DNA of 64,000 nt, from the NCBI GenBank assembly GCA_964612555.1, contig CAZTBW010000005.1:69066-133065 (forward strand). Direction: 5' to 3'. The translations under genes and the position numbers were made by a program. The DNA comes from an uncultured Bdellovibrionales bacterium. Its GTDB lineage: Bacteria; Bdellovibrionota_C; UBA2361; SZUA-149; DAOLCO01. The notes beneath the pieces were generated by a model. The model saw only the letters and a list, made by a program, of their open reading frames with translations. It was not told the DNA's origin and searched no databases. Shown in pieces: positions 1 to 48,846 of this stretch (within the stretch, counting starts at the first letter, position 1; each line of letters opens with the position of its first letter).

Positions 1-673
1 CCTTTTGACCCGCCACTGCGTTAGGCATTTCCTTAAACCAGAAACCTATCAGGAGATAAGAACAAAGCCCCACCCCTTCCCAGCCAACAAACATCAATAA
101 AAGGCTATCACCCAGTACCAGTATCAACATCGCAGAAAGGAACATATTTAAATAAGAAAAGAATCGTGCCGGATGAGGGTCGTGAGACATATAGCCTATG
201 GCATAGAGATGAATCAAAGTGCCTATACCGGTAATAACAAGGCACATCATACCGGACAGATTGTCAAATCTGAATGCAAACGGCACCTCTAATCCACCAG
301 CCGAAATCCAGTTCCAGGCTTCAGCAACAACCGCATTTGTCCCATCAAGTTTTTGAAAAAGGATAAGGGAAATAACAAATGCTATAGCTGATACCATCGT
401 CGCAAGAATACCGGGAAAAGAACTTGAGTGGCTGCCGTCGTGATGATTCTCAGCAGCATGATCTTCTCCCACGTGGTCATGGTGCCCGTGATCACCATGA
501 GAATCATGGGAAGTATTACTTTTAGGGTTAGAAAGGGAACCGATCGTATATACAAGAACCGCCCCTACAAGTGGAACAAGAGGCAGGAGTAATAAAAGCG
601 GCTCTACCTGTAATGCCCCGGCAATAATGCCTTTTGGTAAATCGCTCGCTAATGTGGCTGTAATTTCATTCAT
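1..673 (-). CDS. nuoL: NADH-quinone oxidoreductase subunit L (N-terminal part; the gene runs off the window start)
   Basis: Reverse-complement translation from the ATG at 671-673 gives MNEITATL...LIHLYAIGYMSHDPHPARFFSYLNMFLSAMLILVLGDSLLLMFVGWEGVGLCSYLLIGFWF. This matches the conserved NuoL N-terminal block (E. coli LIHMYASWYM...LGWEGVGLCSYLLIGFYY). It sits directly downstream of nuoK. Confidence 0.85.
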   Translation of the reverse strand, partial: MNEITATLASDLPKGIIAGALQVEPLLLLLPLVPLVGAVLVYTIGSLSNPKSNTSHDSHGDHGHHDHVGEDHAAENHHDGSHSSSFPGILATMVSAIAFVISLILFQKLDGTNAVVAEAWNWISAGGLEVPFAFRFDNLSGMMCLVITGIGTLIHLYAIGYMSHDPHPARFFSYLNMFLSAMLILVLGDSLLLMFVGWEGVGLCSYLLIGFWFKEMPNAVAGQK

Positions 674-679
674 GCGTAG

Positions 680-982
680 TTAACCTGCAAGATCATGTAC
701 TTCTGAAACTTCAATACTGTAATAATTACGAAACACCGCAAGGATAATAGCAAGCCCAACCGCAGCTTCCGCCGCAGCAACCGCTATCACAAAAAACACA
801 AACACCTCTCCATTAAGGTCGCCAAAGGCAGTAGCAAGTGATACCAGAGAAAGATTTACCGCGTTAAGCATAAGCTCAATACACATAAACATGATAATGG
901 CATTTCTACGAGTCATCACCCCGAACACACCCAGGGTAAAAAGTATTGCCGATATAATTAAATAAAAATGCAAATGATCCAT
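680..982 (-). CDS. nuoK: NADH-quinone oxidoreductase subunit K
   Basis: 100-aa protein with three TM helices, the typical NuoK/ND4L size, positioned between nuoJ and nuoL. Confidence 0.85.
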   Translation of the reverse strand: MDHLHFYLIISAILFTLGVFGVMTRRNAIIMFMCIELMLNAVNLSLVSLATAFGDLNGEVFVFFVIAVAAAEAAVGLAIILAVFRNYYSIEVSEVHDLAG

Positions 983-1012
983 AATATAAATTCAGCTATA
1001 GTTATGCACCCA

Positions 1013-1630
1013 CTACTTTGTCGCTGATTTGTCCTCCGCATTAAATTTCTCACGTACTGCACGAAGCCCTCTTCCGGGAAGAAGTGATTTTTCCTTGGGA
1101 AATGAAAGAAGAGCCGCACCAATAATCGCAGCTAAAAGAAGCACCCCGGTAGCCTGAAAAGCCACGATATGATCTTTTAGTAAATATATCCCAAACTGAT
1201 ATACTGCCCCGCTCCGGCTTTCATCCAGAACAGGAGCTGAAGCACCTGCCAATGAATCTGGTTCGGCAGAATAAATAACGGAAGTACTGTCATATCCCGA
1301 AATCAGAAAATAAAGCACCGAAACAAAAATAACTGAAAAGACAAACCCGACATACGCCGGAACAGGGTAACCTACTTTTTCAGCATCTCGCTCTACCCCA
1401 AGAAGCATAATAACAAAAACCACAAGAATCATGATCGCCCCTGCATAAACCAGCACCTGTATCATCGCGATAAAGTCGGCACTCATCAAGGCAAATTGAC
1501 CGGCTATAAGAACCATAGTGGCAACAAGACAGAGTGCGCTGTTAAGACTCTTTCGTGACACTACCACCCCAATGGCGGAAAGCACGCTGAGAAATCCAAA
1601 CAGATAAACAAACAAATCTTTTACGGTCAT
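1013..1630 (-). CDS. nuoJ: NADH-quinone oxidoreductase subunit J
   Basis: 205-aa polytopic membrane protein immediately after nuoH in nuo gene order. Size and hydrophobicity fit NuoJ/ND6. Confidence 0.75.
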   Translation of the reverse strand: MTVKDLFVYLFGFLSVLSAIGVVVSRKSLNSALCLVATMVLIAGQFALMSADFIAMIQVLVYAGAIMILVVFVIMLLGVERDAEKVGYPVPAYVGFVFSVIFVSVLYFLISGYDSTSVIYSAEPDSLAGASAPVLDESRSGAVYQFGIYLLKDHIVAFQATGVLLLAAIIGAALLSFPKEKSLLPGRGLRAVREKFNAEDKSATK

Positions 1631-1664
1631 AGTCCCTTACACTCTATTCTTTTGCTTTCAGTCT

Positions 1665-2795
1665 TTACCATAAGGCAACAACCGCCGCAGTAAGTAGTAC
1701 GTTGGCAATAGCAACAGGAAGCATAATCTTCCAACACAAAGTAATTAACTGATCATATCTGAAACGTGGAAGAGTCCATCTGATAACAACCTGTAGCACA
1801 CAGAAAAAAGCAACCTTTGCTCCAAACACAGATGCTCCAATAAGCGGAGGTAGCAGACTTCCGATATCAAAAGGAAATAGCGAGCCAATTGCGGTATCTT
1901 TTAAAGACACACTCATGGTAGCAAGATCATAATAAGGAAGCTGCCAGCCTCCAAAGAAAAGGACTACCACAATCGCAGAAGCAACTACGATTTCTGCAAA
2001 CTCACCAAGCCAAAACAAAAGAAACTTCATGCCGGAATATTCAGTAAAATAACCAGCAGCAAGCTCTGACTCACTCTCGGGAAGATCAAAAGGAGCACGC
2101 TTGGTTTCAGCCATTGCCGAAGTAAAGAAAATAATGAACGCAACAAAGTTCAAGGGGAAAAACATAAAGATACCCCAGTTGGGTATGAAACCAAGAATAG
2201 TTCCTGTCTGAAGCGCCACAATCTTGTTAAAATCAAGTGTCTGATAAATAGCAAGCACCCCAAGGATACTTAAACCAAAGGTTATTTCATAAGAAATCAT
2301 CTGCGCTGAAGCACGAAGACTTCCAAAAAGGGAGAATTTGTTTCTGGATACCCACCCTGCAAGCACCGTCCCGTAAACCGCAAGAGAACCCATAGCAAAG
2401 ACAAAAAGCATTGCGACATTTAAATTTACAAGCTGCAAGGATATTTCCCTTGTTTCAAGCTTGATTGGAGGACCAAAGGGAACCACCGCCATTGCAAGAA
2501 TCACAGGAAACACTCCCATGAATGGCGCAAGGCTGTGCATAAACTGACTCACCCCTTTTGGAACAAAATCTTCTTTAAAAAGCGCCTTTACCGGATCGCA
2601 CACCAGAGTATTAAGAATACCTGCCAGATCAAAACCAAAAATGCTTGCCCGGTTTGCTCCCACACGATTCTGAATAAGCGCTGCCCCCTTTCTCTCAACC
2701 CAGGTGGTAAGCGCAGCAAGTTTCAACACCGCTCCCATAACAAAAGCGGCTTTAATGATCACAATAAAAATATCAAGAAAACTAAGCGTATTCAT
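1665..2795 (-). CDS. nuoH: NADH-quinone oxidoreductase subunit H
   Basis: 376-aa membrane protein with NuoH/ND1-like motifs (ERKGAALIQNRVGANR, YEITFGLSILGV). Overlaps the nuoG stop. Confidence 0.9.
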   Translation of the reverse strand: MNTLSFLDIFIVIIKAAFVMGAVLKLAALTTWVERKGAALIQNRVGANRASIFGFDLAGILNTLVCDPVKALFKEDFVPKGVSQFMHSLAPFMGVFPVILAMAVVPFGPPIKLETREISLQLVNLNVAMLFVFAMGSLAVYGTVLAGWVSRNKFSLFGSLRASAQMISYEITFGLSILGVLAIYQTLDFNKIVALQTGTILGFIPNWGIFMFFPLNFVAFIIFFTSAMAETKRAPFDLPESESELAAGYFTEYSGMKFLLFWLGEFAEIVVASAIVVVLFFGGWQLPYYDLATMSVSLKDTAIGSLFPFDIGSLLPPLIGASVFGAKVAFFCVLQVVIRWTLPRFRYDQLITLCWKIMLPVAIANVLLTAAVVALW

Positions 2796-4503
2796 GGCTT
2801 CCCTCTACCGCATGTGGACGAACGCTACAATCCTCAAACCCTATTCCCAAAGACCCGATATCCCGAAGGCTGATTCCCCCAAGCGCAGGAACAGCTGCTA
2901 CGAGTTCCCTGAAAAGATCACGCTCTCCTCCTACAGAAGCTGAACATAAAGATACACCCAGAGAACTTGCCACTTTCTGTAAGAGTAGCCAATCAGGAGT
3001 CGTTCCCACCGGCGGAGTAAGAAGGCGATTAAGTTTTTGTAACCGAAGGTCACTATTAACCATAACCCCGGATTTTTCGTGTACCGATTGTGAAGGGAGA
3101 ATCACTTTACATAACTGATGTGCACCAAGTGATTCGACTTCCTTATCATCATCACTGATCACCCCACGTGGGGTAATTGCAAGACTATCCGGTATGTGAA
3201 GGATGTTCTTAATCAAAACCTCATCCAGATCCTCATCCATCAGACTGTTAAATCCATACAGTACCAGTTTCTTTATCACCCCTGCCCTGATCTGCTCAAG
3301 CAGGCGATCATACTGGGATTCAAAACTCGCACGCCAGTCAGACATATCTGAAAGATACCCAAAAAGCTGAGCAGCACGGGCATTAGGAGCATAATCCGGA
3401 CTCACCAAAATCTTTTCAAGATCGCTAAGCTTTCTTCTTCTAAGCGCTACCGCAATCTGGGAATGAGAATCTGCTTCAATTCCAAGTACTTTTTTTGCAA
3501 AAGCAAAACCAAGCCACATTTCTTCAAGAGTCAAAAATGGTGAAATAAGTATCGCTGCTTCATCAGGAGATTTCGTTTTAAATCCCGAGAGTGCGGCGCT
3601 CACCTCCTCCCAGTTCTTTTCCTGAAGATAGTCTCCATCACGGACCAGTGGAGCAGAAAGTCTCACCTTTGGTTGAAATCTATTAAAACCGTACCGACCT
3701 TCATCACACATCCACTCTTTATTAACGTCAGAATTCAGACGTCCTTTTACTTGAACAATGGTATCATCCCGAACCGCAACCCGAACATTACATCCTGTTG
3801 AACAGCCGGTACAAATCGAATCTTCAATACCGGAATACCATATTCGAGAATTAAATCTCCACCTGCGATGCGTTAACGCACCTACCGGACAAAGATCAAC
3901 AGTCACTCCCGAAAATGGATTATCAAGTGGTTTATCTTCATGGATGGCTATTACCGTACGATCCCCACGGTTCAAAACGCTCAATTCACCTGTTTCTGTA
4001 ACTTCATCACAAAAACGAACACATCTGGTACATACGATACAACGCTCGCCGTCATATATAACTTCTCTACCAAGTACTTCAGCTTTCACTTTATGAACTT
4101 TTTCTTCAATAAAACGTGAAGCTTTCCTGTTATACTCGTAATAGTAATCCTGTAACTTGCAATGACCCGCCTGATCACACACCGTACAGTCCAGAGGATG
4201 GTTAATCAGCAGAAATTCCATTGTTGCACGTTGGGCATCTTCCACTTCGGAACTGGTGTTATGTGTGTACACCACCATCCCTTCCTGAGACCCGGTATTA
4301 CAGCCAATGGTAAGCTTCGGAGCTCCTTCCAGCTTGACCTGACACATCCTGCAATTACCGGCAATGCTCAGATGCTTGTGGTAACAATAATAAGGAATTT
4401 CTATCCCCACAGAAAGTGCCGCTTCAATCAGGTTAGTACCCTTGGGTACCCGAACTTCCTTCCCATCAATTGTAAGCGTTACCAAATCCACTGCTTCAGA
4501 CAT
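2782..4503 (-). CDS. nuoG: NADH-quinone oxidoreductase subunit G (short form, about 573 aa). The ORF-track start at 4575 is probably too far upstream; I place the start at the MSEAVDLV... ATG at 4503, overlapping the nuoF stop by 8 nt.
   Basis: N-terminal 2Fe-2S ferredoxin motif (CYHKHLSIAGNCRMCQV) followed by 4Fe-4S Cys motifs (CDQAGHC, CIVCTRCVRFC), matching NuoG architecture. Confidence 0.85.
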   Translation of the reverse strand: MSEAVDLVTLTIDGKEVRVPKGTNLIEAALSVGIEIPYYCYHKHLSIAGNCRMCQVKLEGAPKLTIGCNTGSQEGMVVYTHNTSSEVEDAQRATMEFLLINHPLDCTVCDQAGHCKLQDYYYEYNRKASRFIEEKVHKVKAEVLGREVIYDGERCIVCTRCVRFCDEVTETGELSVLNRGDRTVIAIHEDKPLDNPFSGVTVDLCPVGALTHRRWRFNSRIWYSGIEDSICTGCSTGCNVRVAVRDDTIVQVKGRLNSDVNKEWMCDEGRYGFNRFQPKVRLSAPLVRDGDYLQEKNWEEVSAALSGFKTKSPDEAAILISPFLTLEEMWLGFAFAKKVLGIEADSHSQIAVALRRRKLSDLEKILVSPDYAPNARAAQLFGYLSDMSDWRASFESQYDRLLEQIRAGVIKKLVLYGFNSLMDEDLDEVLIKNILHIPDSLAITPRGVISDDDKEVESLGAHQLCKVILPSQSVHEKSGVMVNSDLRLQKLNRLLTPPVGTTPDWLLLQKVASSLGVSLCSASVGGERDLFRELVAAVPALGGISLRDIGSLGIGFEDCSVRPHAVEGSHEYA

Positions 4504-21974: not shown

Positions 21975-23651
21975 ATGCAAAAATCCTACTCTCTGACATT
22001 CAAAAGACTCTGGAAATTGATCCGCGGCATCTTTCAGTCCGACCTGAAGTGGTATGCCTATGGGCTGGTAGCACTTCTCATACTGTTTGCCCTGACGATT
22101 GCCGGCATCAACGTAATGATAAGCTATATTAATCGTGATCTCTTTAACGCACTTGCGCTGAAAGATCAGACCAAGTTTTTTGAAAAACTGTTTCTTCTTC
22201 TTGGAAGTTTTCTTCTCGCTACTCCTGTAACCGTTCTATATGCTTACACGGAACAACGCTTTGGACTCATGTGGAGAAAATGGCTCAGCAGAGAAATCCT
22301 CCAAAAGTATTTTAAGGAGTCAGCATTTTACAGAATCAGCTGGCATGAGGGCATTGATAATCCTGATCAGAGAATTGAAGAAGATATTCGAACCCTCACT
22401 ACGGGGCTTATCAGCCTCTTCATCATTATTGTAAACTCGATGCTTACCCTGATCATGTTTGTAAGCATATTATGGTCTATCACACCAAACCTCTTGTTTG
22501 CAGTAGTAGTGTATGCCTTCGTGGGCTCAATACTTACCTTTATCATTGGCAGAAAGTTAATTTCTCTCAACTTTACCCAGCTCAAAAAAGAAGCGGACTA
22601 CAGGTACAAACTGGTTAATATTCGTGACAACGCAGAACCGATCGCATTTTATCAGGGTGCTAAAAAAGAATATATCCGCGCACGACAGCGTCTTAAAGAA
22701 TCACTTAATAATTTCCTTAAAATTATCAATCTGAACCTGCAATTAGGTTTATTTGTTAATATTTATAATTACCTTAAACCGGTACTGCCTATTATAATAG
22801 TTACCCCATTATACATGCGGGGAGAAATTGAATTCGGACAGATTACTCAGTCCGCAGATGCCTTTGTCCGCGTCGTTGAAGCCCTTTCTGTTATCATTCA
22901 ACACTTTGGAACGATAAGCACCATGGCTGCCGTAGTGACTCGTCTCGGCACCTTCACTGAAACTCTCGAAGCTGCGGCAGAAGAAACCCATTGCCATTTT
23001 CCAAGGATTCACACCAGACACGCTCCCTATATTGAGATCAAAAATCTGACCATGACAACCCCTAATGGTGAACAGACACTCATCAAAGACCTTTCAATAG
23101 CACACAGGGAAGGTGGACTTCTCATTTCCGGAGCAAGTGGTCTCGGAAAAACTTCACTTCTTCGTGTCATTGGTGGGCTCTGGATATTTGGAGAAGGAGA
23201 GATTACAAGACCCGAAGATAAGGATTGCATGTTCATCCCTCAGCGACCCTACCTGACACTTGGCTCTCTTCGCAATCAATTACTATACTCTAACCCTTCT
23301 ACCGCATATACAAATGAAGAACTCAGAGAAGTACTCGTTAAAGCGGGATTACACAACCTGCTTAGAAGAATCAAAAGTTTCGACAAAACCTATGAGTGGT
23401 CAAACCTTCTTTCTGCCGGAGAACAGCAACAACTTGCATTTGCACGATTGTTATTAAGAAAACCCAGATTCGTTTTCCTTGATGAAGCAACCACCTCCGT
23501 TGATGCCACCACTCAAAATAAATTATATGAGCTCGTGATGGAACACTGCACCGCCTGGGTGAGCGTTGGATATAAGAGCAGCATTGGTTCATATCACCAC
23601 ACGCTGCTTGAATTCAGTATTGATGGCACCTTTACCTGTCACACGTTATGA
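21975..23651 (+). CDS. ABCD-family (YddA/SbmA-BacA-like) ABC transporter with fused permease and ATPase
   Basis: TMD with the ABCD 'EAA-like' motif (NIRDNAEPIAFYQG). NBD with GASGLGKTS, signature LSAGEQQQLAFARLL and Walker B VFLDEATTSVD. About 558 aa, like E. coli YddA. Confidence 0.8.
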   Translation: MQKSYSLTFKRLWKLIRGIFQSDLKWYAYGLVALLILFALTIAGINVMISYINRDLFNALALKDQTKFFEKLFLLLGSFLLATPVTVLYAYTEQRFGLMWRKWLSREILQKYFKESAFYRISWHEGIDNPDQRIEEDIRTLTTGLISLFIIIVNSMLTLIMFVSILWSITPNLLFAVVVYAFVGSILTFIIGRKLISLNFTQLKKEADYRYKLVNIRDNAEPIAFYQGAKKEYIRARQRLKESLNNFLKIINLNLQLGLFVNIYNYLKPVLPIIIVTPLYMRGEIEFGQITQSADAFVRVVEALSVIIQHFGTISTMAAVVTRLGTFTETLEAAAEETHCHFPRIHTRHAPYIEIKNLTMTTPNGEQTLIKDLSIAHREGGLLISGASGLGKTSLLRVIGGLWIFGEGEITRPEDKDCMFIPQRPYLTLGSLRNQLLYSNPSTAYTNEELREVLVKAGLHNLLRRIKSFDKTYEWSNLLSAGEQQQLAFARLLLRKPRFVFLDEATTSVDATTQNKLYELVMEHCTAWVSVGYKSSIGSYHHTLLEFSIDGTFTCHTL

Positions 23652-26566
23652 ACAGAATACTCTTCTTACTGATAAGCATATTCACCGTTCAGGGTAGTAC
23701 CGTTCTTAACGCCGGAGCGGAAACTCAGAACGAGATAAGATTCTCACCTGAACAACTGGTTGATCTTGCTTTCAAAGACTGCCCGGAACTGCTTCAATAT
23801 CTGAGCACCCCGCACGTACAGGCATCCCAATATGAAAAATTTCAGATAGGAGAAGCCCTGACAAGGATTCTTGAGCTTGAATCTCCAAACATACCTTCGG
23901 GAATGCAGGCTTCAAGCATATTGTACGATACCTACTTTCCCTCTGATATATCACGGGTTCTTGAACCTGATCGTGAAAATGAAGCCAAGCTGTGCACTTT
24001 GCGGGCTCTCACCATGATAGCCCCGCAATCAATTGCATTTACTCCCGTTCTTTTTAAATTGACTTTGAGAAAAACCATCTCCGGAAATATTCGCCTTGAA
24101 GCACTTGATACCGCAGACAAAATCCTCTCAACAGTTTCCTCACCACTTGATGATGAGAGTAGACAAATACTTCTTCGCCAGATTCAGAAACATTCGGGTA
24201 TTTTAAGTGACCCGATCTCCATATCCTTACTCGCATATCTCGCCAGATATCATCTTCAGGATCTCCTGAAATTGATGTCAAAAGACCACAGAATAACGCC
24301 TGTCGCAATGAAAGCAATAGCAGGAACCGACCCTGATGGAACACGCAGCATCCCATTACTGAAAGACAGCAGCACCCTGTGGGACGAAACCGGAATTTCA
24401 TTGATCATAAAACATCTTTCCTTGTTTTCTGCCGAGGCGGCTCCACATATCATCGAATTCATTGGTGAGGTACTTGGAAATTTTTCAGCCGGAAAAAGTA
24501 ATAAAATAAGAAAAGAAATTTTCTCTATTCTGAACATTCTTACGTCCAAACCTTCTACCTTCTCTGACTATTATCTGGAGCACAATTTGGAGGAAGACAT
24601 ACTTAATCAATATCTTTCCCTTCTTCAAACCGAAAACAAAAGCAATAAAATAATAATTTTCAAACTGCTTTCAAAGATACAAATTCCATCTGAATATCAG
24701 ATATGCAGTAACGATGAAGCGGAACTAAGATCTCCTCTGCTTACGGAAGCTCCCGGAAGCGAGTACCTACACTCTCTCTTAACTCATCTCATGTGCCCTC
24801 TTTCTGCTGAAAAAAAGAAAGAGATGCTTACATGGCTGGAAACAGAAGATAATTACGCAAAAACAACTATTGCAATTTCCGCCCTGGGTCATCATACAGC
24901 AATTGACCAACAAGCGGTTTCTGCTCTCAGAAAACTACTTGCAAAACTCGCCAAGGACAAGAAAAACAAAGAGCTGGAACATCTAAGCGCCCTCTCCTTT
25001 TTCTACATATCGCAAAGTGCATTTGATAAACATTTCAATCAACTACTTCCTTTTGCCATCGAACATCTTCAAACATCCGGAGAACTCCCCCCTATTTTCA
25101 GAGAAACCATTACGGACTCAATTCACCCGGGCATGCTATTCTTCCTTGCACACGGAAGACATACCACCGCACAACTTGGAGAACTACTTGATCATAAAAG
25201 TGCTCTCGTGAGACTTCGCGCTGCAAGTATTCTATCTTCCCCCGAGATTCCATACACTCCGTCTCACACTGCCTATTTCATAAAACTGCTTGATGACCCC
25301 GAAATCGAATTACAGAACATTGCGTTTGAGACGCTCAAAAAACAGGTAAAAGAAGCTGATTTAAAACTCTTTGTCAAAAATCTTAAAAATGAAAATTCTC
25401 TTAAAAAGTTTTATAGTACCAATATTATTTTTGACAGATTTATACACGACACCGAGTCAGATTTGACAAAAAAGCTCGACTCTCAGTTCTCCGTAAAAGA
25501 AATTTTCCAGCAATATGCTTCAGTCCTTCCTGAAATACCCTGTTCCATAAAAGCGAAACAAATTCCCGATGCCGTCTTTAGCAAAATATCAGATCAAACA
25601 TTTGCGCTTCAGTCTGAAATTGTAAAATCTCATCTTACCTGTGCTGCGTTTTCCACAGACCACTTCGAGCAAGTGGCACGCCTGCTTACCCATATTAAAA
25701 AGAAATCACCACACGTAATTGAACTTTTCTTCAAACAAGTCAAAAAAAGAAAATATTATTTAGCCAACACTACATTGTTTGATCTCACTGCTGACATACT
25801 CACCGGAACTTCCGAAATATCGCATGAGTTTATAGAGTTTCTGCTTCACCACACTAAAAATGCAGAAAGTATATATCTCTATCAATGGCTGCAAAAAAAC
25901 AGGCGCTACACCAACGACAACAAAGAGGTGATTGAAAAACTTTTAAAAAACACATACCCAAACAAATCAACAAATGAACTGAATAAATTATTTTTAAAGC
26001 TGTTTCTCGGTGATTCCAATCCTGAATCCTGGTATCCTGATCTGAAAAAACAAAAACTGAACGAGGATTCGCTTCGTGATTTTCTTAAACTGATTCCTGA
26101 ATCCGAACTACGTTCTTTGATCACCTCTCTGGGAAACCATGAAAGACCAGATCATTACTACATATCCTTTAAATCACATGTCTGCACCCTCGCTCCCTTT
26201 GAAGATAATTGCAAAGTCCTTTTTAACGAGATGAAATCTGTACTTTTAGATCACCCATCAATGTTACTTTCTGCTTTACTTTTTCAAGCCGATCGGTATC
26301 TTGACTATGAAACTTGCGATGCAGAACATCAGTTGAATCTCATTTCGTGTGAGGAAAGAAGAGAAGCAATCCTTGGTGAAGCCGTATTATTACTTGAAAA
26401 ATTATTACTAAGTGGTAGCTGGCTCCAGAGTACTCCGAACCAGGACACTAAAAAATTATCTGTTTTACTTGATATACTTACGGCATCTGATGCCCCATAT
26501 CACTTACAGGTTTTATCAAAACTGTTTCGCATAAAATTGCTTGACGATAGTACTATTAATTTGTAA
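23648..26566 (+). CDS. signal-peptide-bearing 972-aa alpha-helical repeat protein of unknown function, probably periplasmic
   Basis: N-terminal signal peptide (MNRILFLLISIFTVQGSTVLNAGA). Leucine-rich helical repeats throughout (HEAT/ARM-like by composition). Its start overlaps the ABC transporter stop (ATGA) and it ends 15 nt before cgs. Confidence 0.6.
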   Translation: MNRILFLLISIFTVQGSTVLNAGAETQNEIRFSPEQLVDLAFKDCPELLQYLSTPHVQASQYEKFQIGEALTRILELESPNIPSGMQASSILYDTYFPSDISRVLEPDRENEAKLCTLRALTMIAPQSIAFTPVLFKLTLRKTISGNIRLEALDTADKILSTVSSPLDDESRQILLRQIQKHSGILSDPISISLLAYLARYHLQDLLKLMSKDHRITPVAMKAIAGTDPDGTRSIPLLKDSSTLWDETGISLIIKHLSLFSAEAAPHIIEFIGEVLGNFSAGKSNKIRKEIFSILNILTSKPSTFSDYYLEHNLEEDILNQYLSLLQTENKSNKIIIFKLLSKIQIPSEYQICSNDEAELRSPLLTEAPGSEYLHSLLTHLMCPLSAEKKKEMLTWLETEDNYAKTTIAISALGHHTAIDQQAVSALRKLLAKLAKDKKNKELEHLSALSFFYISQSAFDKHFNQLLPFAIEHLQTSGELPPIFRETITDSIHPGMLFFLAHGRHTTAQLGELLDHKSALVRLRAASILSSPEIPYTPSHTAYFIKLLDDPEIELQNIAFETLKKQVKEADLKLFVKNLKNENSLKKFYSTNIIFDRFIHDTESDLTKKLDSQFSVKEIFQQYASVLPEIPCSIKAKQIPDAVFSKISDQTFALQSEIVKSHLTCAAFSTDHFEQVARLLTHIKKKSPHVIELFFKQVKKRKYYLANTTLFDLTADILTGTSEISHEFIEFLLHHTKNAESIYLYQWLQKNRRYTNDNKEVIEKLLKNTYPNKSTNELNKLFLKLFLGDSNPESWYPDLKKQKLNEDSLRDFLKLIPESELRSLITSLGNHERPDHYYISFKSHVCTLAPFEDNCKVLFNEMKSVLLDHPSMLLSALLFQADRYLDYETCDAEHQLNLISCEERREAILGEAVLLLEKLLLSGSWLQSTPNQDTKKLSVLLDILTASDAPYHLQVLSKLFRIKLLDDSTINL

Positions 26567-26581
26567 ATCAAACGGAAACGT

Positions 26582-29500
26582 ATGCCACAAAGTTTTTTAA
26601 AAAAATTAAGCTCTTCACGACACCCTAACGAGGGGAAACCATTCCGATCTGAGATTCTCTCAAAAGAACTTTTGGGTCTTCATGCTGTCGATATCGCAAA
26701 AGCATCTCCTTTAGCTACAAAATACATAAAAGCAATTCCCCTGAAAAACAAATTCAGGGAAAACTGCAAATCATTAAACTCAGTCTACTTTTCACTTTCC
26801 GAAATCGCATCGAAAAAAGGTTTCCTTGCTGCCGGTGCAGAGTGGTTACTGGACAATTACCATGTAATTGATGAGCAGGTTCGTGAAATCAGGAGAGACC
26901 TTCCCGCAAGCTACTACAAAGCCCTTCCTAAAATCGCATCCGGCGAGTGGAAAGGGTATCCGAGGGTATTTAGAATTACCTGTGATTATATTGAACACAG
27001 CGATTCCATGATTCAGTTGGAAACTCTTTCAGAGTATATTTCTTCATTTCAAAAAGAACATGTGCTGAATATTAATGAACTCTGGGCTATCCCCATCATG
27101 CTTCGGCTTGCCCTGGTTGAGAATCTCAGAAGGCTTTCCCAGTCGGTACTCAGGTTTTCACTTGAAAGAGAATATGCCGAAACGATTTTTAACAGGATTG
27201 CACACAAAAAAGACATATCCTCAACTGAGATTCTTAGCCAAATACTCCAAAACGTCTCACCCAAACACGAACAAATAGATATCCTCTTTCCTTTACTGAT
27301 TGCCCGACTGAGAACACTCGGAAGTAGTTCAGCTCTGGGCATTCAATGGCTTGAAGAAAAAGCACGCGAAAAAGAAGTTAACATCCATGAATCCACCAAA
27401 AAACAACAACAACTTCAGGCATCCGATCAGATTTCAATTGGAAATGCCGTTACTTCATTAAAAAACATTGGGCGACTTGACTGGAGAGAATGGGTCGAGT
27501 CTCAGTCTATCGTCAACCAGATTCTATCCAGAGAACCTTCCAATATTTTCAGCTCGTCAGACTTCTACACCAGAGATCTGATCAGACATAAAATTGAAGA
27601 CCTTTCAAGAAAATATAAATGCCCTGAAACTCACATTGCCGAACTTGCACTTTTTCTTGCCAAAAACAATCCGGATACAGAACTTCCGTATAAATCTCAT
27701 GCGGGATATTATCTGATTGATGAAGGAATAGACGAACTTGAAAAAGAAATCAGTTCCGGAAACAATCTTCAAAGGAACATACGTTCTCATTTCAAAAACA
27801 ACTCTTTTCTTTATTATTTACTGACCATACTTATAGCAACGGCGAGTATCAGTTTCTTTTTAACTGATCAACTTACTGACCCGGGCACCTCTGCCGGATA
27901 TCTCTTTTTAATTTTTATTTTACTGTTTATCCCTTCCAGCCAGCTCGCACTTGAGTTCATCCAGTGGATATCATCCAAACTGCTTACTCCGGAGCCTCTA
28001 CCAAAGCTGGACTACGATACGGGGATTCCGGATACTGCGGCAACTCTTGTGGTAATCCAGTCAATTGTTTCAAATAAAGATCACTTACTAAAAACGATTG
28101 ACGATCTTGAGATCCGAGCTATTGGCAACAAAAATGCAAATATTTCATTTGGAATTCTTGCTGATTTATCTGATGCACCCACCAAAGATACTCCGGGTGA
28201 TAGCGACCTTATATCAAGCAGTTTTAAAAAAATCCGGGAACTAAACTCTCAGTATGAATCCGAGGGAATACATTTTTTTATTTTATTCAGGGAACGCAGG
28301 TGGAACGAATCTGAGAAGAAATATATTGGATGGGAGAGGAAAAGGGGTAAGCTTATTGAATTTAATCGACTTCTTCGAGGAGCCGAGGATACTACTTTCA
28401 GCAGCTTTGAAGGGGATCTGAACATCCTTAGAAAAGCTACGTTCGTAATCACACTTGATAACGACACACAGCTTCCGCCCGGTACGGCAAAAAAACTCAT
28501 CGGATGTGCCGATCATCCACTTAACAGCCCGGTTATAAACTCAGAAAAGAGAATAACAAGCAGAGGATATGGAATTATTCAGCCTCGTGTCGGCATCACT
28601 CTTGAAAGCGCCTCTGCTACTCCATTTGCTTCTATTTCTTCAGGACAGTCCGGTCTTGACCCTTACACAAGAACTATCTCGGATATATATCAGGATATAT
28701 TCAGGGAAGCCTCTTTTATCGGAAAAGGTATTTATCACATAGATACTTTCATTCAGGTACTTGATACAAGATTTCCCGAAAACAGCATTCTCAGTCACGA
28801 TCTTCTGGAAAGCGGATACGTGCGATGTGGTCTTGCATCAGACATTGAAGTATTTGATGAATTTCCCAAACGGTATCATGCACACGCAAAGCGTCAACAT
28901 CGCTGGATAAGAGGTGACTGGCAACTGGTTAAATGGCTCTTACGTGTCACTCCCACCCAAACCTCAAAAGAAAAGAACCACCTCTCGCATCTGGTACAAT
29001 GGAAACTATTTGATAACCTGAGAAGAAGCCTTCTTCCTCTTAGCTTACTACTACTAGTGTTCGTAACATCTCTAAATAATTTTTCACTCACTCTTCTTGC
29101 AATTATTTTTCTTCTAAGTGGGTTCAGGACTTATTCACTTGTATATTCCATGCTTTTTAATATCCCGATAGGGTATTCAATATCTACACACTTTCATACA
29201 GTATTCAGGGATATAAAAAGCAGTTTTCTTTCCTGGTGTTTTGAGCTGATTACACTGCCCCATCAGGCATACATATCATCTGATGCCATTATTCGGACGC
29301 TCTACCGTGTATTTATTTCAAAACAAAATCTGCTGGAATGGGAAACCGCATTAAGTTCTGAATTGAGATTAAAAGCAACATTAAGCTCTTTTGTACAGTC
29401 AATGAAAGGTGCCTATGTTATCTTGCTTCCTCTGGCACTCCTTCCTCTTCTGGCTACGAATCTTACCACATGGGCGTATCTGTTAGTTATAGGACTTTGG

Positions 29501-32500
29501 GCGCTTGCTCCACTTCCTGCATGGTTGATCAGCAGAGATTACAGTAATCGAACTTCACTGCTTTCAACTGCGGATAGAAAATATCTTACAAATGTTGCTC
29601 ATGACACCTGGAGGTATTTTCGAAACCATCTCAAGGAAGAGTATCATTATCTCATACCTGATAATATTCAGCTTAACCCTCAACCTGTCGTTGCAGAAAG
29701 AACCTCACCTACCAATATATCGCTTTCTCTTATGGCGCTCACTTCAGCATACGATCTTGGATTCATCCCTTCACCGGTGCTCCTGGAGTCCTCCAACAAA
29801 ATTTTACTCAGTGTTCAACAACTTGAACGCTTTCAGGGACACTTATTAAACTGGTACGCCTTAAGAGATTTACGACCACTACACCCAAGATACGTTTCAT
29901 CGGTAGATAGTGGGAATTTTGTAGGTCATTTAATAGTCCTTAAGGAAACACTTAGAGCACTCCCCTATTCTCCTCTCATACACGAAGCGCACATGAGAAT
30001 ACTGTCTGAGTATCTTGAAAAACCGCTGGATTTAACTCTCAGGTCTGGCAATGAAGTATTTCATATGCTTACCCCTGAGATAGAAAGACATATAGCGGAC
30101 AAAACACACCTTCAAGATGTCGAACAGGAGCTTCTAAATGATTTCTCTTCAGTAGTTCCCTACACTCGCTGGATCAGCAGGCTCTTTATCCTTGAAGAAC
30201 TGGGTCGACTTCATGTACTACCGAAAAAACTTTCCCGCATTCAGGAAATAGTAAAAAACAGACCTCTTACGCCTTTTCTCATAAACAAAATAGTATCAAG
30301 AATCCTGGCTTCCGAAGATAAAATATTTACAGACTCTCTGACTGAAAAACAGCGGGATTCTTTAGTAGCACTATTTAAAGACCTGACTACCGCAAAAGAT
30401 ACCATTTCTATTTTCTTCGATACCATCAAGTCACTTTCTAAAATTATCGAAACCCTGATCGAAGAAACGAACTTCAATTTTCTGTATGACAAGCAGAAAA
30501 AACTGCTTTCTATAGGATATAATATTGAAACCGCTTCCCTTGACAGCGGCTCATATGACTTACTTGCCTCAGAAGCCCGACTTGGCAGTTTTGTGGGAAT
30601 TGCAAAGGGAGACCTACCTCATCTGCATTGGTTTTTCCTGGGGAGAGCGCTCACAGAATCATCCGGTGGTAAAGCGCTCATATCCTGGTCTGGTACCATG
30701 TTTGAATACCTCATGCCGATTCTTGTAATGAGGAACTACCCCTCAACTCTTCTTGGTAAGACCTACCAATCAGTCATAAAAGCTCAACAATCGTACTGTT
30801 TCAGAAGAGGAGTCCCCTGGGGTATTTCCGAATCAGCATATGGAACGGTTGATTTTGAGAACACCTATCAGTATCGGGCGTTCGGAGTACCGGGGCTGGG
30901 ACTTAAACGAGGATTAATTGAAGATCTGGTAATTTCACCTTATTCATCGGCGCTAGCCCTTCAGATTACACCATCAGAGGCAACCAAAAATCTTCATGCA
31001 CTGGAAACTATCGGAGCTCGTGGTGAATATGGTTTCTATGAAGCGATTGATTACACTCCGGAACGACTTACCAGTGAAGAGTCTTTTCACATTATTAAAT
31101 CATTCTTTGCGCATCATCAGGGCATGACGATAACCGCTATTAACAATGCCCTGAATGGTAACATTATTCAGGAACGATTCCACAAAGACCTGAGAGTACA
31201 AGCATGTAACCTCTTACTACAGGAACGCTTTCCAAATCGGATTCCTCTCATACTTCCACATCAGGCTGAACTCCTTCTTATCGAATCCGGTGAACAGGAT
31301 TCAAGGTATGATACTCAGGAACATTTTAAATCACCTCATCAACCGTTTCCAAGAACGCACCTGCTTTCAAACGGAGAATATACGGTCTGCATTGATCACA
31401 GAGGAAACGGTTTCAGCAGCTTGAATAATGAATACCTTGTAAACCGTTTTACACCTCTTGCAAGATATACCAACCAGGGGCAATACATTTTCATCAAAGA
31501 TGAGCTAAAAAACCTGTTCTGGTCTAACACGTATTATCCGTGCAAACATGAACCGGAATCGTACGAAGTCTTATTCGCACCTGACAAGGTAGAGTATCAA
31601 AGACGTGACTTTGACGTTCATACCATGACTGAAATAGTGGTATCTCCTGAAGATAATATCGAGATAAGAAAAGTCGGGCTCACAAATCACTCTTCATCAC
31701 TAAGAAAACTAAGTCTTAGCAGCTATGTCGAGGTAGCCCTTGCTTCTGCAAGAGCAGACGCGGCACATCCGGCGTTCTCAAAACTGTTTCTGGAAACTCA
31801 GTGGGTTCAAGACCCCGAGGTGCTACTTTGCATCAGGAGACCACGTGCGGGTGAAAAAGAGAGTCCTATACTTTTTCATTTTGCGGCTTCTGAAGTAGTT
31901 TGGGAACCAACTCAGTACACCACTGACCGGCTCGAATTTATCGGACGTGGCAATACCCTTTCCACACCACGTGCACTTTATTCCGATACACGTCTTGATA
32001 AAAAAACCGGATATGTACTCGACCCCTGTTTGTGTATTAAACAAATTGTCGAATTAGATGCGGGGGAATCGACCAACATATATTTTATTACGGGGTTTGC
32101 CCAGAGTGTAGAAGAGGCGATGTATCTCTGTAAAAAATATAAAGAGACACAATCTATCAGAAGAGCGGCGGAACTTGCATGGAGCCATGCAAATGTTGAG
32201 CAGAAGAATCAGCAGTTTCTCAAAGCAAGTACGCTTGATTTTCAGCATCTTGGTAATGCTCTTTTGTATCCTCTTGAAGAACTTCGGGATATCTCCATCA
32301 CAAATACCCCGCAATTATCGCAAACCGGTCTCTGGAAAATGGGCATCTCAGGTGATGAACCGATCATATTATATTACATAGATGACACATCCTATATCGC
32401 ACACTTTCAGGAGATGATTTTTGCTCATGAGTTCCTTCGCACACGAGGAATAATTTTCGATCTGGTAGTTTTAAACGATAAATCAGAGGGGTACATACAA

Positions 32501-45566: not shown

Positions 45567-45643
45567 CTTATTACATATAATATTGCATGAATTTTTACTA
45601 AAAATATTTGCATTTCATGTCTTAGTGGCTTATAATTGTCAGT

Positions 45644-46228
45644 ATGAAACCAAAAAAGCAGAATTTGCTGTTAGATCAAATGGAAGCGGGGCGTGTGTAT
45701 AGACGTCAGGAGCTGTCTTCTTTCTCAAAAGCAGTGGACAGAGATTTAGCTGCACTTGTGAAAGAAAAGAAAATAGAAAAGGTGGGGGCGGGTCTTTATT
45801 ATAAACCGATGGTTTCCAGCTTTGGATTATTACCCCCCGAACAACGTGAAATAGTTCGAGCTTTTTTAAAAACAGATGATTTTCTTCTTACTTCGCTGAA
45901 TTACTTTAATGGTCTTGGGGTTGGTTTAACTCAGCTCAGTAACGAAATGCTTGTCTATAATCGCAAACGTACAGGAAAGTTCAATCTTGGTGGCTTGGTT
46001 TATAACTTTCAAAGACCACTGAATTTTCCACGACCCTCAGAAATAAATGAAGAATATCTATTTGTTGATATGCTCAATAACTACGAAAACCTTTACGAAC
46101 CTCCAGAGCAATTCAAAAACATTCTCAAGAAAAAAGCCACAAAGCTTAAGAAAAAAGAATTGCTGCATGCGGTAAATATGTATGGCAAGGTCAGAACAAA
46201 TAAAAAACTGCAAGAACTTTTAAGTTAA
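45644..46228 (+). CDS. AbiEi-like antitoxin (type IV toxin-antitoxin system, transcriptional regulator component)
   Basis: 194-aa protein located 4 nt upstream of an AbiEii nucleotidyltransferase gene. The N terminus is winged-helix-like (RVYRRQELSSFSKAVDRDLAALVKEKKIEKVGAGLYY). Assignment is mainly by genomic context. Confidence 0.55.
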   Translation: MKPKKQNLLLDQMEAGRVYRRQELSSFSKAVDRDLAALVKEKKIEKVGAGLYYKPMVSSFGLLPPEQREIVRAFLKTDDFLLTSLNYFNGLGVGLTQLSNEMLVYNRKRTGKFNLGGLVYNFQRPLNFPRPSEINEEYLFVDMLNNYENLYEPPEQFKNILKKKATKLKKKELLHAVNMYGKVRTNKKLQELLS

Positions 46229-46231
46229 GTA

Positions 46232-47179
46232 ATGACTAAAACACCCTTTCTTCATGAATTACCCGAGTTTGCAGAAGTAATTCAAAGCGTCTCACAGCAA
46301 AGAAAGATAGCAAACCAGCTTGTTGAAAAAGATTACTGGTTAATGCATGTTTTATGGGGATTACAGAATTGCGGTCTTACATATGAACTAAAAGGAGGGA
46401 CTTCACTTTCTAAAGGATGGAACATCATTCACCGCTTTTCAGAAGATATTGATATAAAAATATTCCCACCTGAAGACCTGAAAGTTTACTTTGGCAGGAA
46501 TCATTCAAAACCTAAACATCGAAAAAGCAGAGAAGAACATTTTCACTGGTTGCTGGGGGTATTAAATATTCCTGGCACTATATATGTTAATCGAGATTTG
46601 AGTTTTGATGATCATGATATTCGCAGTGTGGGTTACAGAATTGGATATACTTCTCTTTATAATTCATTCCTCGGGGTAAAAACTGATATTCTGCTTGAAG
46701 TTGGCTTTGACACGACAACACCGAATGAGCACCAGGATATTTCATCATGGGTATATGATTTAGTGAAGGAGGCTGGCTTAAAAGTACAGGATAATCGGGC
46801 AAAGGAAGTCCCTTGTTATCTTCCTGAATATACCTTCGTTGAAAAACTGAGTGCCATATCAAAAAAATATCGCCAGGAGACAGGTGGAAAATCAGTACAA
46901 AATTTCACTCGCCACTACTACGACATTTATCAGCTCTTGCAGCAGGAACGAATTATTACGTTTATTGGGACAGAAGAGTATTTCATACACAAATCTGCAA
47001 GATTCAATAAGGATGATGAGATGAACATATCAGACAATCCTGCCTTTACTTTATCAAACACTGAAATAAGAGAACGCTATTCAGAGCGATTTGCTAATTC
47101 ATCAGGACTATATTTTCACGAACAACCGAGTATCGAAGCAATACTGAACAAGATAAATATGCATATTCATAAACTGTAG
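46232..47179 (+). CDS. AbiEii/AbiGii-family nucleotidyltransferase toxin (DUF1814)
   Basis: LKGGTSLSKGWNIIHRFSEDIDIKIF matches the GGTxL...RxSxDxD nucleotidyltransferase signature of AbiEii. 315 aa. Confidence 0.8.
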   Translation: MTKTPFLHELPEFAEVIQSVSQQRKIANQLVEKDYWLMHVLWGLQNCGLTYELKGGTSLSKGWNIIHRFSEDIDIKIFPPEDLKVYFGRNHSKPKHRKSREEHFHWLLGVLNIPGTIYVNRDLSFDDHDIRSVGYRIGYTSLYNSFLGVKTDILLEVGFDTTTPNEHQDISSWVYDLVKEAGLKVQDNRAKEVPCYLPEYTFVEKLSAISKKYRQETGGKSVQNFTRHYYDIYQLLQQERIITFIGTEEYFIHKSARFNKDDEMNISDNPAFTLSNTEIRERYSERFANSSGLYFHEQPSIEAILNKINMHIHKL

Positions 47180-47526
47180 GGGCTTGGCTTGTTTACTCTG
47201 AGCCTGCCGAAGGTTCCCCTGCCCACCCATAACATAGTAAAATCAAATACTTACAGCATAACATACCAAGCATTCCTTTTTGGTGAGTCACTGAGAAAAG
47301 CCGGGGGCGATTACTTGACATAAATAATGGTTTTTTGTAGGTTGGGGCTGTATTTTCAGTTCTTTTAGAATGACCCCATCAGTGTATGGAGAATTTGTAT
47401 CTTTATAAGGTATTTGAATAATACTTTTTAAAGTAAGTACAAATTCTTGCGGGAAATTCGTCTTATGTTTCCTGCGCGTTAATAAGGTTTTAGCGTAGGT
47501 AATAACTTTTCCGCTCAAGGAGTATT

Positions 47527-47580
47527 TCTCGAAGTGTTTCGAGACTCTGAGGAGCACCTGTCTTTTTCCTGAAAGGAAAA
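47527..47580 (+). promoter_or_regulatory. 5' leader hairpins upstream of gene 47585: TCTCGAA-GTGT-TTCGAGA (47527-47544) and the SD-occluding UUUUCC-UGAAA-GGAAAA (47564-47580, a fourU-thermometer-like arrangement)
   Basis: Perfect 7-bp and 6-bp stems read directly from the sequence. The second stem pairs the AGGAAAA Shine-Dalgarno region (5-11 nt before the ATG at 47585) with an upstream U-run. Confidence 0.4.
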
Positions 47581-47584
47581 AACC

Positions 47585-48730
47585 ATGAAGAAGTATACGT
47601 CCCGACTGGTGGCATTCGCCACGAGTCTCTGTCTTTGTCTCGCTTCCCAAACTTACGGGAACGATGATGATAATCGAAGCTTAGCAGATATAGCTGCAAG
47701 CATCGAGGCAAAATTTGAAGAAATGAATGGGAATCTCTCCGACATCAGGGAGGGGTACCGGGAATTCGAGCAGCTTCAGAATGAGGAATTGAAAAAATTG
47801 ACCGACGCTGGGCTTCGTGTGCACCGTGTTGATTTGGCTTCCTACGAAGCTAATCAGGCGGAAATCCTTTCAAATCTTGGTGTTGAGTACGACGCCATTG
47901 CGCTTGATCTGGAAGCCGGACAGGCTGAGAGATTTTACACAACGGTTGCAAACCGTACTGGGTACACATCTATCCTTGATTCACACGGAAATGTATATTT
48001 CCAGGAAGGTCAAGAGTTAGTCAGTGCCCAGAGCGTGCTGCAGAACTCTGGTACTGGTGGTTACAATCTATACCAACCCCAGTATCAGCAACAATACCAG
48101 CCTTGCTACCCACAGCAACAGTACTGCCAACCCTGCTACCCGCAACAACAGATGTGTGGGAACGCTTGCAACCCATGCCCTGGTGCACATGAGTTTCAAC
48201 AGTACAATCAGGGCAGAAGAATGGGACAAAGGGTATTCGGACACGGCTATAACGGTCGTACTTTCCGTAGCACCCTCCAAGCAGCCCCGTTAATGCACCC
48301 CTATGTGTTGACGGATCTCTTTGGATTCAAGGATGGGCGCCTGTTCAGCAGATTAGAGAACCCTACACGAATAGGTGAAGGGCGTGCTCTTAATTTTATG
48401 TTCCCTCGTATTCGCTACAAAAATGGATATATTTGTAGTGAGCACGACATGCGAGTACATCTCGCAAGGCGCCAACTGGCTATCATATTGAGCACGTCCA
48501 TCGCTGTTGGTGGTGGAAGTGGCGGTGGTGGACCTAAACCAGGACCAGGTCCGGGACTCCGTCCACCGGGAACTCTGTTCTGCCCGGGTTGCCTTGGATT
48601 CGGGATGTTGGATGCAACATACCCCGACCCCGTGGTCAATCCACAAGGGTATCTGTATCCAGAAGACCCGAACCTCCGCTATCGTCGGACAGGAAGGGGA
48701 CACCTTTTAGAAACCCATCTTGCCGCTTAG
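47585..48730 (+). CDS. secreted protein with a Gln/Pro/Cys-rich repeat (QPCYPQQQYCQPCYPQQQMCGNACNPCPG) and a Gly/Pro-rich segment. Unknown function.
   Basis: Signal peptide (MKKYTSRLVAFATSLCLCLASQTYG). A coiled-coil-like N-terminal domain. Low-complexity QQ/Cys repeats and GGGSGGGGPKPGPGPGLRPPG. Confidence 0.55.
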   Translation: MKKYTSRLVAFATSLCLCLASQTYGNDDDNRSLADIAASIEAKFEEMNGNLSDIREGYREFEQLQNEELKKLTDAGLRVHRVDLASYEANQAEILSNLGVEYDAIALDLEAGQAERFYTTVANRTGYTSILDSHGNVYFQEGQELVSAQSVLQNSGTGGYNLYQPQYQQQYQPCYPQQQYCQPCYPQQQMCGNACNPCPGAHEFQQYNQGRRMGQRVFGHGYNGRTFRSTLQAAPLMHPYVLTDLFGFKDGRLFSRLENPTRIGEGRALNFMFPRIRYKNGYICSEHDMRVHLARRQLAIILSTSIAVGGGSGGGGPKPGPGPGLRPPGTLFCPGCLGFGMLDATYPDPVVNPQGYLYPEDPNLRYRRTGRGHLLETHLAA

Positions 48731-48846
48731 CAGGTAATACAGGGTCGAACGTAAAAACGATCACGTATCTGTCTTAACAGGTACGTGATCAGGTTTTTTA
48801 TTGAGCTTTCTGACACGCGCAGGAAGCTCCTTTTCTTTTTTTAGTA

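Follow-up and report, generated by a model that had tools for sequence, protein, structure and literature searches.

A predicted AbiE-type toxin-antitoxin cassette with a candidate palindromic operator, probably acquired horizontally by an uncultured Bdellovibrionales bacterium

Results

A 64-kb stretch of DNA from an uncultured Bdellovibrionales bacterium (contig CAZTBW010000005.1; the whole stretch is called the window below) carries two consecutive open reading frames (ORFs) which, judged from their sequence, make up a genuine and intact pair of the AbiE type, that is, a toxin-antitoxin and phage-defence system. The ORF list places the first gene, abiEi, at 45644-46228 (+; 194 amino acids, aa) and the second, abiEii, at 46232-47179 (+; 315 aa), both with an ATG start, both full length relative to their homologues and together covering exactly the span given in the initial annotation; the spacer between them is 3 nt (TAA-gta-ATG), not the 4 nt stated there. 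The preceding genes match Pfam Polysacc_synt_3 (wzx-like flippase, 3.7e-72), Glyco_trans_1_4 (group-1 glycosyltransferase, GT4, 3.5e-17) and TM2 (3.8e-13), in agreement with the claimed placement of the pair directly after wzx-GT4-TM2. The non-coding gap of about 400 bp that was noticed 3' of abiEii is also there: it measures 405 nt (47180-47584) with no plus-strand ORF of at least 60 aa, and it contains no Rfam family, no significant RNA fold (z -0.6), no terminator-like site and no similarity to the DNA downstream of abiEii in relatives. A 56-aa ORF that follows abiEii in L001 proved to be an unrelated metallophosphatase fragment (L-numbers denote the homologous or related contigs and loci that were compared).

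According to sequence and predicted structure, the 315-aa product is a DUF1814/AbiEii nucleotidyltransferase and the putative toxin of the pair. Its score against Pfam PF08843, a check asked for by the initial annotation, is 94.1 bits (E = 1.6e-26), well above the gathering cut-off of 22.5, with positions 17-236 of the 238-position profile covered, and it matches the PADLOC AbiEii model PDLC02289 over its full length (5e-65). The protein collection gave scores for more than 7,600 AbiEii homologues, of which the best, apart from the protein itself, is 70-71% identical; a look-up of the exact AbiEii sequence met no recorded contig, and a cluster look-up gave singletons. Neither protein of the pair matches NCBIfam, and HMMER comparison of both with PDB sequences, in single-sequence and profile mode (a 32-sequence profile for the toxin), gave no meaningful match, so that structure prediction and Foldseek were needed. 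The AlphaFold2 model of AbiEii (predicted local distance difference test score, pLDDT, 92.8) has as its top PDB match the Mycobacterium tuberculosis toxin TglT/MenT3, Rv1045 (6j7q, 6j7o; probability 1.00, template-modelling score, TM, 0.53-0.58), followed by other nucleotidyltransferases of the Pol-beta type.

The motifs of AbiEii were mapped by the definitions of Dy et al. 2014 (PMC3985639), namely hG[G/S]-x15-DhD, the DUF1814-specific Arg, the Lys of motif III and +DxxD of motif IV. Motif I (L53-K-G55-G56) and motif II (R68-F-S-E-D72-I-D74) are invariant in 32 homologues and stand 15 residues apart, the long spacing typical of DUF1814; the GGTSL...RFSEDIDI signature that had first drawn attention to the gene is found here as K54-G55-G56-T57-S58-L59 ... 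R68-F-S70-E-D72-I-D74-I75. Motif III is represented by E204-K205-L206, with K212 seven residues further, and motif IV by R227-H228-Y-Y-D231, in which D231 is invariant and H228, standing in place of the first Asp of +DxxD, is likewise invariant in the 32 aligned homologues, that is, in the whole clade. Taking the 96 columns in which 31 homologues show conservation of 90% or more, the protein agrees with every one, and the toxin therefore looks functional.

The 194-aa product of abiEi is harder to recognise by the usual profiles. Its only Pfam match is DUF6088, at 18.5 bits and under the cut-off of 25, and the AbiEi_1-4 profiles, with which the initial annotation had suggested to check it, do not match it at all; among 34 members of its clade 22 match DUF6088 and none matches any AbiEi_x profile. 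The PADLOC AbiEi model PDLC02234 matches it over its full length (4e-63); 11 further AbiEi models of that collection match it too. The AlphaFold2 model (pLDDT 89.5) shows at its N-terminus a winged helix-turn-helix (wHTH), followed by a mixed alpha/beta C-terminal domain. Its four top PDB chains in Foldseek are 1zel_A and 1zel_B (Rv2827c of M. tuberculosis, TM 0.57-0.60) and 6y8q_A and 6y8q_D (AbiEi of Streptococcus agalactiae, probability 0.89-0.99), beyond which no PDB match exceeds a probability of 0.82 over more than the wHTH. Conservation is nearly complete, with agreement in 48 of the 49 columns that are at least 90% conserved in homologues. We compared 82 homologous AbiE loci; all of the 69 toxin loci that have at least 600 nt of upstream DNA carry an AbiEi homologue as the immediate upstream neighbour, in the same orientation. 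Because of the fold, this 69/69 pairing and the PADLOC profile, the 194-aa protein is an AbiEi, as its position and size had led the initial annotation to propose, in a clade that Pfam does not merge with AbiEi. The identity of the pair as a whole is backed by the same kinds of evidence: profile matches, predicted folds and the partnership of the genes.

The naming of such proteins in public resources reflects this gap. On plasmids PGAP calls the same pair "DUF6088 family protein" and "AbiEii/AbiGii toxin family protein", and a survey of 2025 lists AbiEii/DUF6088 as a "novel combination" (PMC12654330).

Upstream of abiEi we find a 29-bp imperfect palindrome, TGCATGAATTTTTA-C-TAAAAATATTTGCA (45584-45612, +), which we propose as a candidate AbiEi operator from its sequence. 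Its right arm is the -35 box of a sigma-70-like promoter (45607-45636, +) with -35 TTGCAT or TTTGCA, a spacer of 17-18 nt and -10 TATAAT, which reached 10 of 12 matches in the promoter scan. Because the -10 box (45631-45636) ends 7 nt ahead of the abiEi ATG, the abiEi mRNA appears to be leaderless, with a predicted transcription start. The same geometry of -35, -10 and about 7 nt to ATG recurs in L169, L171, L172, L083, L001, L087 and L103. Antitoxins of the AbiEi family autorepress through inverted repeats in their own promoters (PMC7319586); the palindrome fits this rule, and AbiEi is, by this analogy, a probable autorepressor.

Comparison of upstream regions points in the same direction. 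Within the window there is one site within 3 mismatches of the clade operator consensus, that at 45584-45612, with 0 expected. Among the 70 homologous loci on which operator counts are based, 36 have an operator-like element 43-73 nt upstream of abiEi with at least 19 of 26 specified bases, and 58 have the exact 8-mer TGCATGAA upstream of abiEi, against 0.0027 expected per site, a Rhizobium plasmid being included. When 13 upstream regions are aligned, nearly all invariant columns belong to the palindrome block and the ATG, and a -10-like hexamer is kept in position about 7 nt ahead of the ATG. The palindrome TGCATGAATTTTTAnTAAAAAnnCTTGCA fused to the -35 box was seen at 45584-45612 of the window, the loci compared being L001, L083-L162 and L168-L172. 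In distant loci embedded in bacteriophage exclusion (BREX) systems only its left half, TGCATGAAAcgTnAATGAG, is retained, about 25 nt before the ATG, where it is placed after a TATGAT box and before a GAGG Shine-Dalgarno sequence; the sequence of the element is thus kept and its position relative to the promoter shifts between loci.

The company that this pair keeps in other genomes is of a mobile or defensive kind. The nearest AbiE relatives come from unrelated organisms: pairs of 68-73% identity have a tyrosine integrase as neighbour in L169 and L171 and are flanked by comM and a tRNA synthetase gene in L172 (whose ComM is only 38% identical to that of the window), and the pairs of L001 and L084, 59-63% identical, adjoin tyrosine integrases as well. 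Of the more distant relatives at least 16 lie inside type 1 BREX loci, with brxC on one side and pglX on the other (L102, L104, L107, L109, L112, L120, L124, L134, L137, L142, L143, L146, L149, L150, L151 and L158), where the neighbours were identified by Pfam BrxC domains and an Eco57I/MmeI-type methylase (pglX); five further loci have PglX alone. AbiE homologues are carried by 143 plasmids of PLSDB. Both proteins match PHROG families over their full length (phrog_19731 and phrog_21852); a scan of viral contigs for AbiE gave no match, and the phage GenBank collection gave only two weak matches, at 27% identity. One small contig, L089 (MWWH01001149.1, 7220 bp), has abiEii at its start, the 5' part of abiEi at its end and a RepA-type initiator (PF10134) between them, and is probably a circular RepA plasmid of about 7.2 kb that carries this AbiE clade, with TACATATATTTTTAGTAAAAATGGGTGTA as a degenerate form of the operator.

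None of the other proteins of the window, including wzx, GT4 and TM2, was found in the 82 AbiE loci. DNA conservation around the pair ends at the palindrome on the left and at the abiEii stop codon on the right, which sets the mobile unit at about 1.6 kb.

A full-length TM2 homologue led to a JGI contig, L165 (sample JGI 3300078543), which is related to the window and preserves the neighbourhood of the pair. Identity to the window proteins is 91% for FabF, 86% for FabH, 84% for AroA, 77% for wzx, 74% for the 705-aa lyase-like protein, 68% for the beta-helix protein, 57% for GT4 and 55% for TM2, and along L165 one finds, in this order, lyase, beta-helix, wzx, GT4, an extra GH15 gene, TM2, fabH, fabF, an hda-like gene and aroA. 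From the TM2 stop to the fabH stop there are 95 nt in L165, and the contig has no homologue of AbiEi, of AbiEii or of the next three genes of the window; what lies between TM2 and fabH in the window (45567-51850, about 6.3 kb), with AbiE and three ORFans, is thus a variable segment that is absent from L165. The initial annotation had wished to see the 42.0-47.6 kb block compared in relatives, and had itself named conserved synteny as an outcome contrary to its view of an acquired glycan island: the part at 42.0-45.6 kb is indeed syntenic in L165, and AbiE is absent there. Since the block stands between the same housekeeping genes in both, the glycan genes are a conserved core chromosomal neighbourhood and the AbiE cassette is probably an independent accessory insertion between TM2 and fabH.

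Composition sets the same stretch apart. The AbiE pair has a GC content of 0.37, against a window mean of 0.43, and TM2 has 0.364, so that nowhere in the window is GC as low as in TM2 and AbiE (0.36-0.37, z about -2); tetranucleotide usage deviates most (z +3.6) at 44.5-46.5 kb, in the TM2/AbiE stretch, and wzx and GT4 are of normal composition (GC z about -0.8). No tRNA, integrase or transposase gene and no significant flanking direct repeats were found in the window, and when the TM2|fabH indel and the surroundings of the cassette were searched for att-like direct repeats or for junctions that could be aligned, matches stayed at chance level. The absence of the pair from the syntenic L165, its mobile and defence contexts elsewhere and its deviation in GC and tetranucleotides are the grounds on which we consider that it was probably acquired horizontally, as a self-contained 1.6-kb cassette.

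The three ORFans of the variable segment are of a composition that differs sharply from AbiE and from the window mean. The first (47585-48730, +; 381 aa, GC 0.50) has a signal-peptide-like N-terminus and repeats rich in Gln, Pro and Cys; the second (48847-50397, -; 516 aa, GC 0.41) is rich in Lys and Glu; the third (50570-51598, -; 342 aa) has a GC of 0.505 and a GC at third codon positions (GC3) of z +3.0. No Pfam, PHROG or significant PADLOC match was obtained for any of them, and none is a further component of a known defence system.

Several observations concern the surroundings of TM2 and the rest of the window. The extra gene of L165 (8048-9913) encodes a GH15/trehalase-N glycoside hydrolase and lies on the opposite strand between GT4 and TM2, and the TM2 homologues of L166 and L167 do not adjoin wzx or GT4, which means that TM2 is no constant member of a wzx-GT4 operon. 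On L166 (523-1577), the contig of a more distant TM2 homologue, a different and shorter AbiEii-like gene (265 aa, weak PF08843) follows an 88-aa ORF and adjoins a gene for a transposase-type HTH, about 9 kb from TM2. Further upstream in the window an ogt-like gene (36018-36563, +) and prfC (36553-38178, -) converge, with an 11-nt overlap of their 3' ends (36553-36563). The product of prfC, release factor 3 (RF3), has its best matches among GTDB representatives at 60-63% identity (a Parachlamydiaceae metagenome-assembled genome, MAG, and two other MAGs), which share no synteny with the window; contig L163 (from SRR27197485), with a 91%-identical prfC, is not syntenic on its visible side, and its prfC neighbour at that junction is an RF-1-domain gene, which makes this junction variable too. 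The region 21975-35218 has an ABC transporter of the ABC_membrane_2/SbmA type (21975-23651), a 972-aa ORF without a family match and then a 2878-aa protein in which GH94 supersandwich, GH94 catalytic and glucoamylase domains are combined as in a cyclic beta-1,2-glucan synthase. With this synthase-like gene and the lyase-like, beta-helix, wzx and GT4 genes the window is rich in glycan functions.

Discussion

From the analysis above it would be logical to suggest, and we regard it as likely, that the roughly 1.6 kb at 45584-47179 form an AbiE module which is intact and was acquired horizontally, which is composed of operator and promoter, abiEi and abiEii, and which would act as its homologues do. 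The steps of its action are modelled here on AbiE of S. agalactiae and MenAT of M. tuberculosis. AbiEii would be a Mg2+-dependent nucleotidyltransferase, with G55/G56, R68, D72, D74, K205 and D231 as catalytic residues by comparison with characterised homologues, and the free toxin would arrest growth, for which the most likely route is nucleotide addition to the acceptor ends of tRNA and a resulting block of translation. AbiEi would repress the operon by binding of its winged HTH to the palindrome and would neutralise the toxin by its C-terminal domain and the conserved K76-T-D-D-F80 loop. When the supply of antitoxin is lost, through a phage that shuts off host expression or through loss of the DNA segment, the toxin would become free, with abortive infection or post-segregational growth arrest as the result. 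Translation of abiEi would start from the leaderless mRNA and that of abiEii by coupling across the 3-nt spacer.

The way of neutralisation deserves a separate discussion, as the view of it is changing in the literature. S. agalactiae AbiE had been assigned to type IV, with a toxin that binds GTP (PMC3985639), and the initial annotation gave our pair the type IV label; the label is under revision, as a 2026 preprint (10.64898/2026.01.19.700257) moves S. agalactiae AbiE to type VII. According to this preprint AbiEii is a pyrimidine-specific, tRNA-directed nucleotidyltransferase, and AbiEi binds it and induces its auto-phosphorylation at T65, the counterpart of MenT3 S78 and MenT1 T39; neutralisation requires the AbiEi loop D85-E86-I87. 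In our toxin S70, within R68-F-S70-E-D72-I-D74, stands two positions before the first catalytic Asp and is invariant in the clade, and by the register R-x-T65-x-D67-x-D69 we infer that it is the equivalent of T65. T57 of GGTS, our first guess for the phosphoacceptor, was dropped, as the S. agalactiae register R-x-T65-x-D67 points to S70. In the antitoxin a loop T77-D78-D79-F80, with F80 invariant and DD as the consensus, lies between helix 67-75 and strand 81-84, at an inter-domain position that appears to correspond to D85-E86-I87, in a purely positional equivalence. Because S70 and the T77-F80 loop sit at corresponding positions, we consider transient binding of AbiEi followed by auto-phosphorylation of AbiEii on S70, that is, the type VII mechanism, as the most likely mode of neutralisation.

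Among the characterised systems, AbiEi-AbiEii of S. agalactiae and Lactococcus lactis (COG5340-COG2253; PDB 6Y8Q) share with our pair the antitoxin-then-toxin bicistron of about 195 and 290-315 aa, the antitoxin built of a wHTH and a C-terminal domain (Foldseek probability 0.99), the DUF1814 toxin with motifs I-III and a form of motif IV, inverted repeats in the promoter and a Ser or Thr two residues before the first catalytic Asp. They differ from it in lacking HMMER-detectable similarity and in the antitoxin family, which in the window is DUF6088 and not AbiEi_1-4. The operator of the window is one 29-bp palindrome over the -35 box, whereas S. agalactiae has two 23-bp repeats (PMC7319586); the mRNA is predicted to be leaderless, whereas S. 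agalactiae has a 26-nt leader (PMC3985639); the genes are separated by 3 nt, whereas those of S. agalactiae and L. lactis overlap by 4 nt; and motif IV reads RHxxD. In M. tuberculosis, MenA3-MenT3 (Rv1044-Rv1045, TglT) provides the best structural match of the toxin (TM 0.53-0.58) and Rv2827c of Rv2827c-Rv2826c (MenA4-MenT4) that of the antitoxin (TM 0.60). Neutralisation by phosphorylation of the Ser next to the catalytic Asp (PMC7205606) is likely shared with MenAT. Identity is 12-15%; Rv2827c exceeds our antitoxin by 100 aa, and its binding to four repeats shows negative cooperativity (PMC7319586).

A plasmid example, the pair of DUF6088 with AbiEii/AbiGii on plasmid pRL4b1 of Rhizobium leguminosarum (L168; WP_060504954.1/WP_166465955.1), belongs to the same clade at 41% and 48% identity, has proteins of 195 and 314 aa and a palindrome containing TGCATGAA upstream, and stands among defence-like genes. 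Such proteobacterial plasmid pairs differ in that they come from Alphaproteobacteria, are plasmid-borne and have overlapping genes in place of the 3-nt spacer; in the literature we found no experimental characterisation of plasmid DUF6088 and AbiEii/AbiGii pairs. On pRL4b1 (521-3288) an AAA ATPase gene and a gene with a UvrD-helicase domain stand immediately upstream of the pair, a combination known from Gabija-type defence systems, which would suggest a defence island.

Some points weigh against the explanation by an intact and acquired module. Three of them belong to the departures from known systems: the identity to all characterised AbiE and MenT proteins is too low for an HMMER match to PDB even by profile, for which reason the equivalences of S70 and of the DDF loop are drawn from position; one 29-bp palindrome makes up the candidate operator, where S. 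agalactiae has two repeats; and the R-H-x-x-D form of motif IV in the clade departs from +DxxD. The GC3 of the two genes is only mildly low (z -0.7 and -1.1), and with a single syntenic relative an insertion in the window is inseparable from a deletion in L165. Finally, S. agalactiae AbiE gave no protection against 32 coliphages (10.64898/2026.01.19.700257), so that a role in defence is not guaranteed for any AbiE. For our pair such a role may be suggested by association, as relatives are nested in BREX loci and beside defence-like genes.

Of the other explanations the one that survives best, which we still find improbable, is that AbiE would serve, not phage defence, but as the addiction module of the smaller segment at 45.6-51.8 kb and of the three genes there, which are specific to the lineage and secreted or ORFan. 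Compared with L165, the five genes share one pattern of presence and absence, and stabilisation by AbiE is documented in other systems (PMC3985639, PMC11062541). The ORFans, however, have GC contents of 0.50, 0.41 and 0.50 against 0.37 for AbiE and are never beside AbiE in other loci, which makes a single co-acquired unit unlikely; moreover, the segment is not bounded by mobility genes or repeats, and elsewhere conservation around AbiE ends already at the operator and the stop codon.

Less probable again, in our view, is a domesticated or decaying remnant, in which AbiEi would be mainly a transcription factor of host genes or the toxin would be inactive. AbiEi homologues can show regulatory phenotypes, as in Mesorhizobium (PMC8436566), Rv1044 of M. 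tuberculosis does not bind its own promoter (PMC7319586), and the host seems to be a lone, possibly host-associated lineage under uncertain phage pressure. Speaking against it are the apparently intact catalytic motifs and 96/96 conserved columns of the toxin, the intact operator-promoter, unique in the window, and the full length of both ORFs.

It is very hard to credit the proposal of the initial annotation that AbiE marks the edge of, or stabilises, a horizontally acquired surface-polysaccharide island at 42.0-47.6 kb: AbiE systems can stabilise plasmids and integrative and conjugative elements (PMC3985639, PMC11062541), the pair follows wzx-GT4-TM2 directly on the same strand and TM2 shares its low GC (0.364), but the block from lyase to TM2 is syntenic in L165 between the same housekeeping genes without AbiE, wzx and GT4 are of normal composition, TM2 homologues occur apart from them in L166 and L167, none of the 82 AbiE loci carries a homologue of wzx, GT4 or TM2, and the window has neither integrase, transposase and tRNA genes nor flanking direct repeats.

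Conclusions

The intact AbiE module that we favour adds one more locus to a family which is already widespread and well studied, and the finding matters little beyond annotation; its modest interest lies in the conserved candidate operator, the predicted leaderless design and the annotation gap around antitoxins of the DUF6088-type clade. For the organism it corrects the reading of the region: the glycan genes belong to the core, and AbiE is an accessory cassette in a variable spot between TM2 and fabH. If the host should prove to be chlamydia-like, the locus would also be a further record of defence and toxin-antitoxin content for lineages of that sort. For annotation it means that a "DUF6088 family protein" of PGAP adjoining an AbiEii toxin has the AbiEi fold and is the cognate antitoxin, and TGCATGAATTTTTAnTAAAAAnnCTTGCA offers a concrete, testable operator sequence for this clade. 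We may even suggest, as a tentative idea to which we give somewhat less than even chances, that the clade with DUF6088-type AbiEi is a distinct regulatory variant of AbiE, with a single operator centred on TGCATGAA and fused to the -35 box, a leaderless antitoxin gene, an R-H-x-x-D toxin and a minimal 1.6-kb cassette that would have landed repeatedly in BREX operons, beside integrases and between housekeeping genes, and here in a lineage whose nearest RF3 relatives are Parachlamydiaceae-like MAGs.

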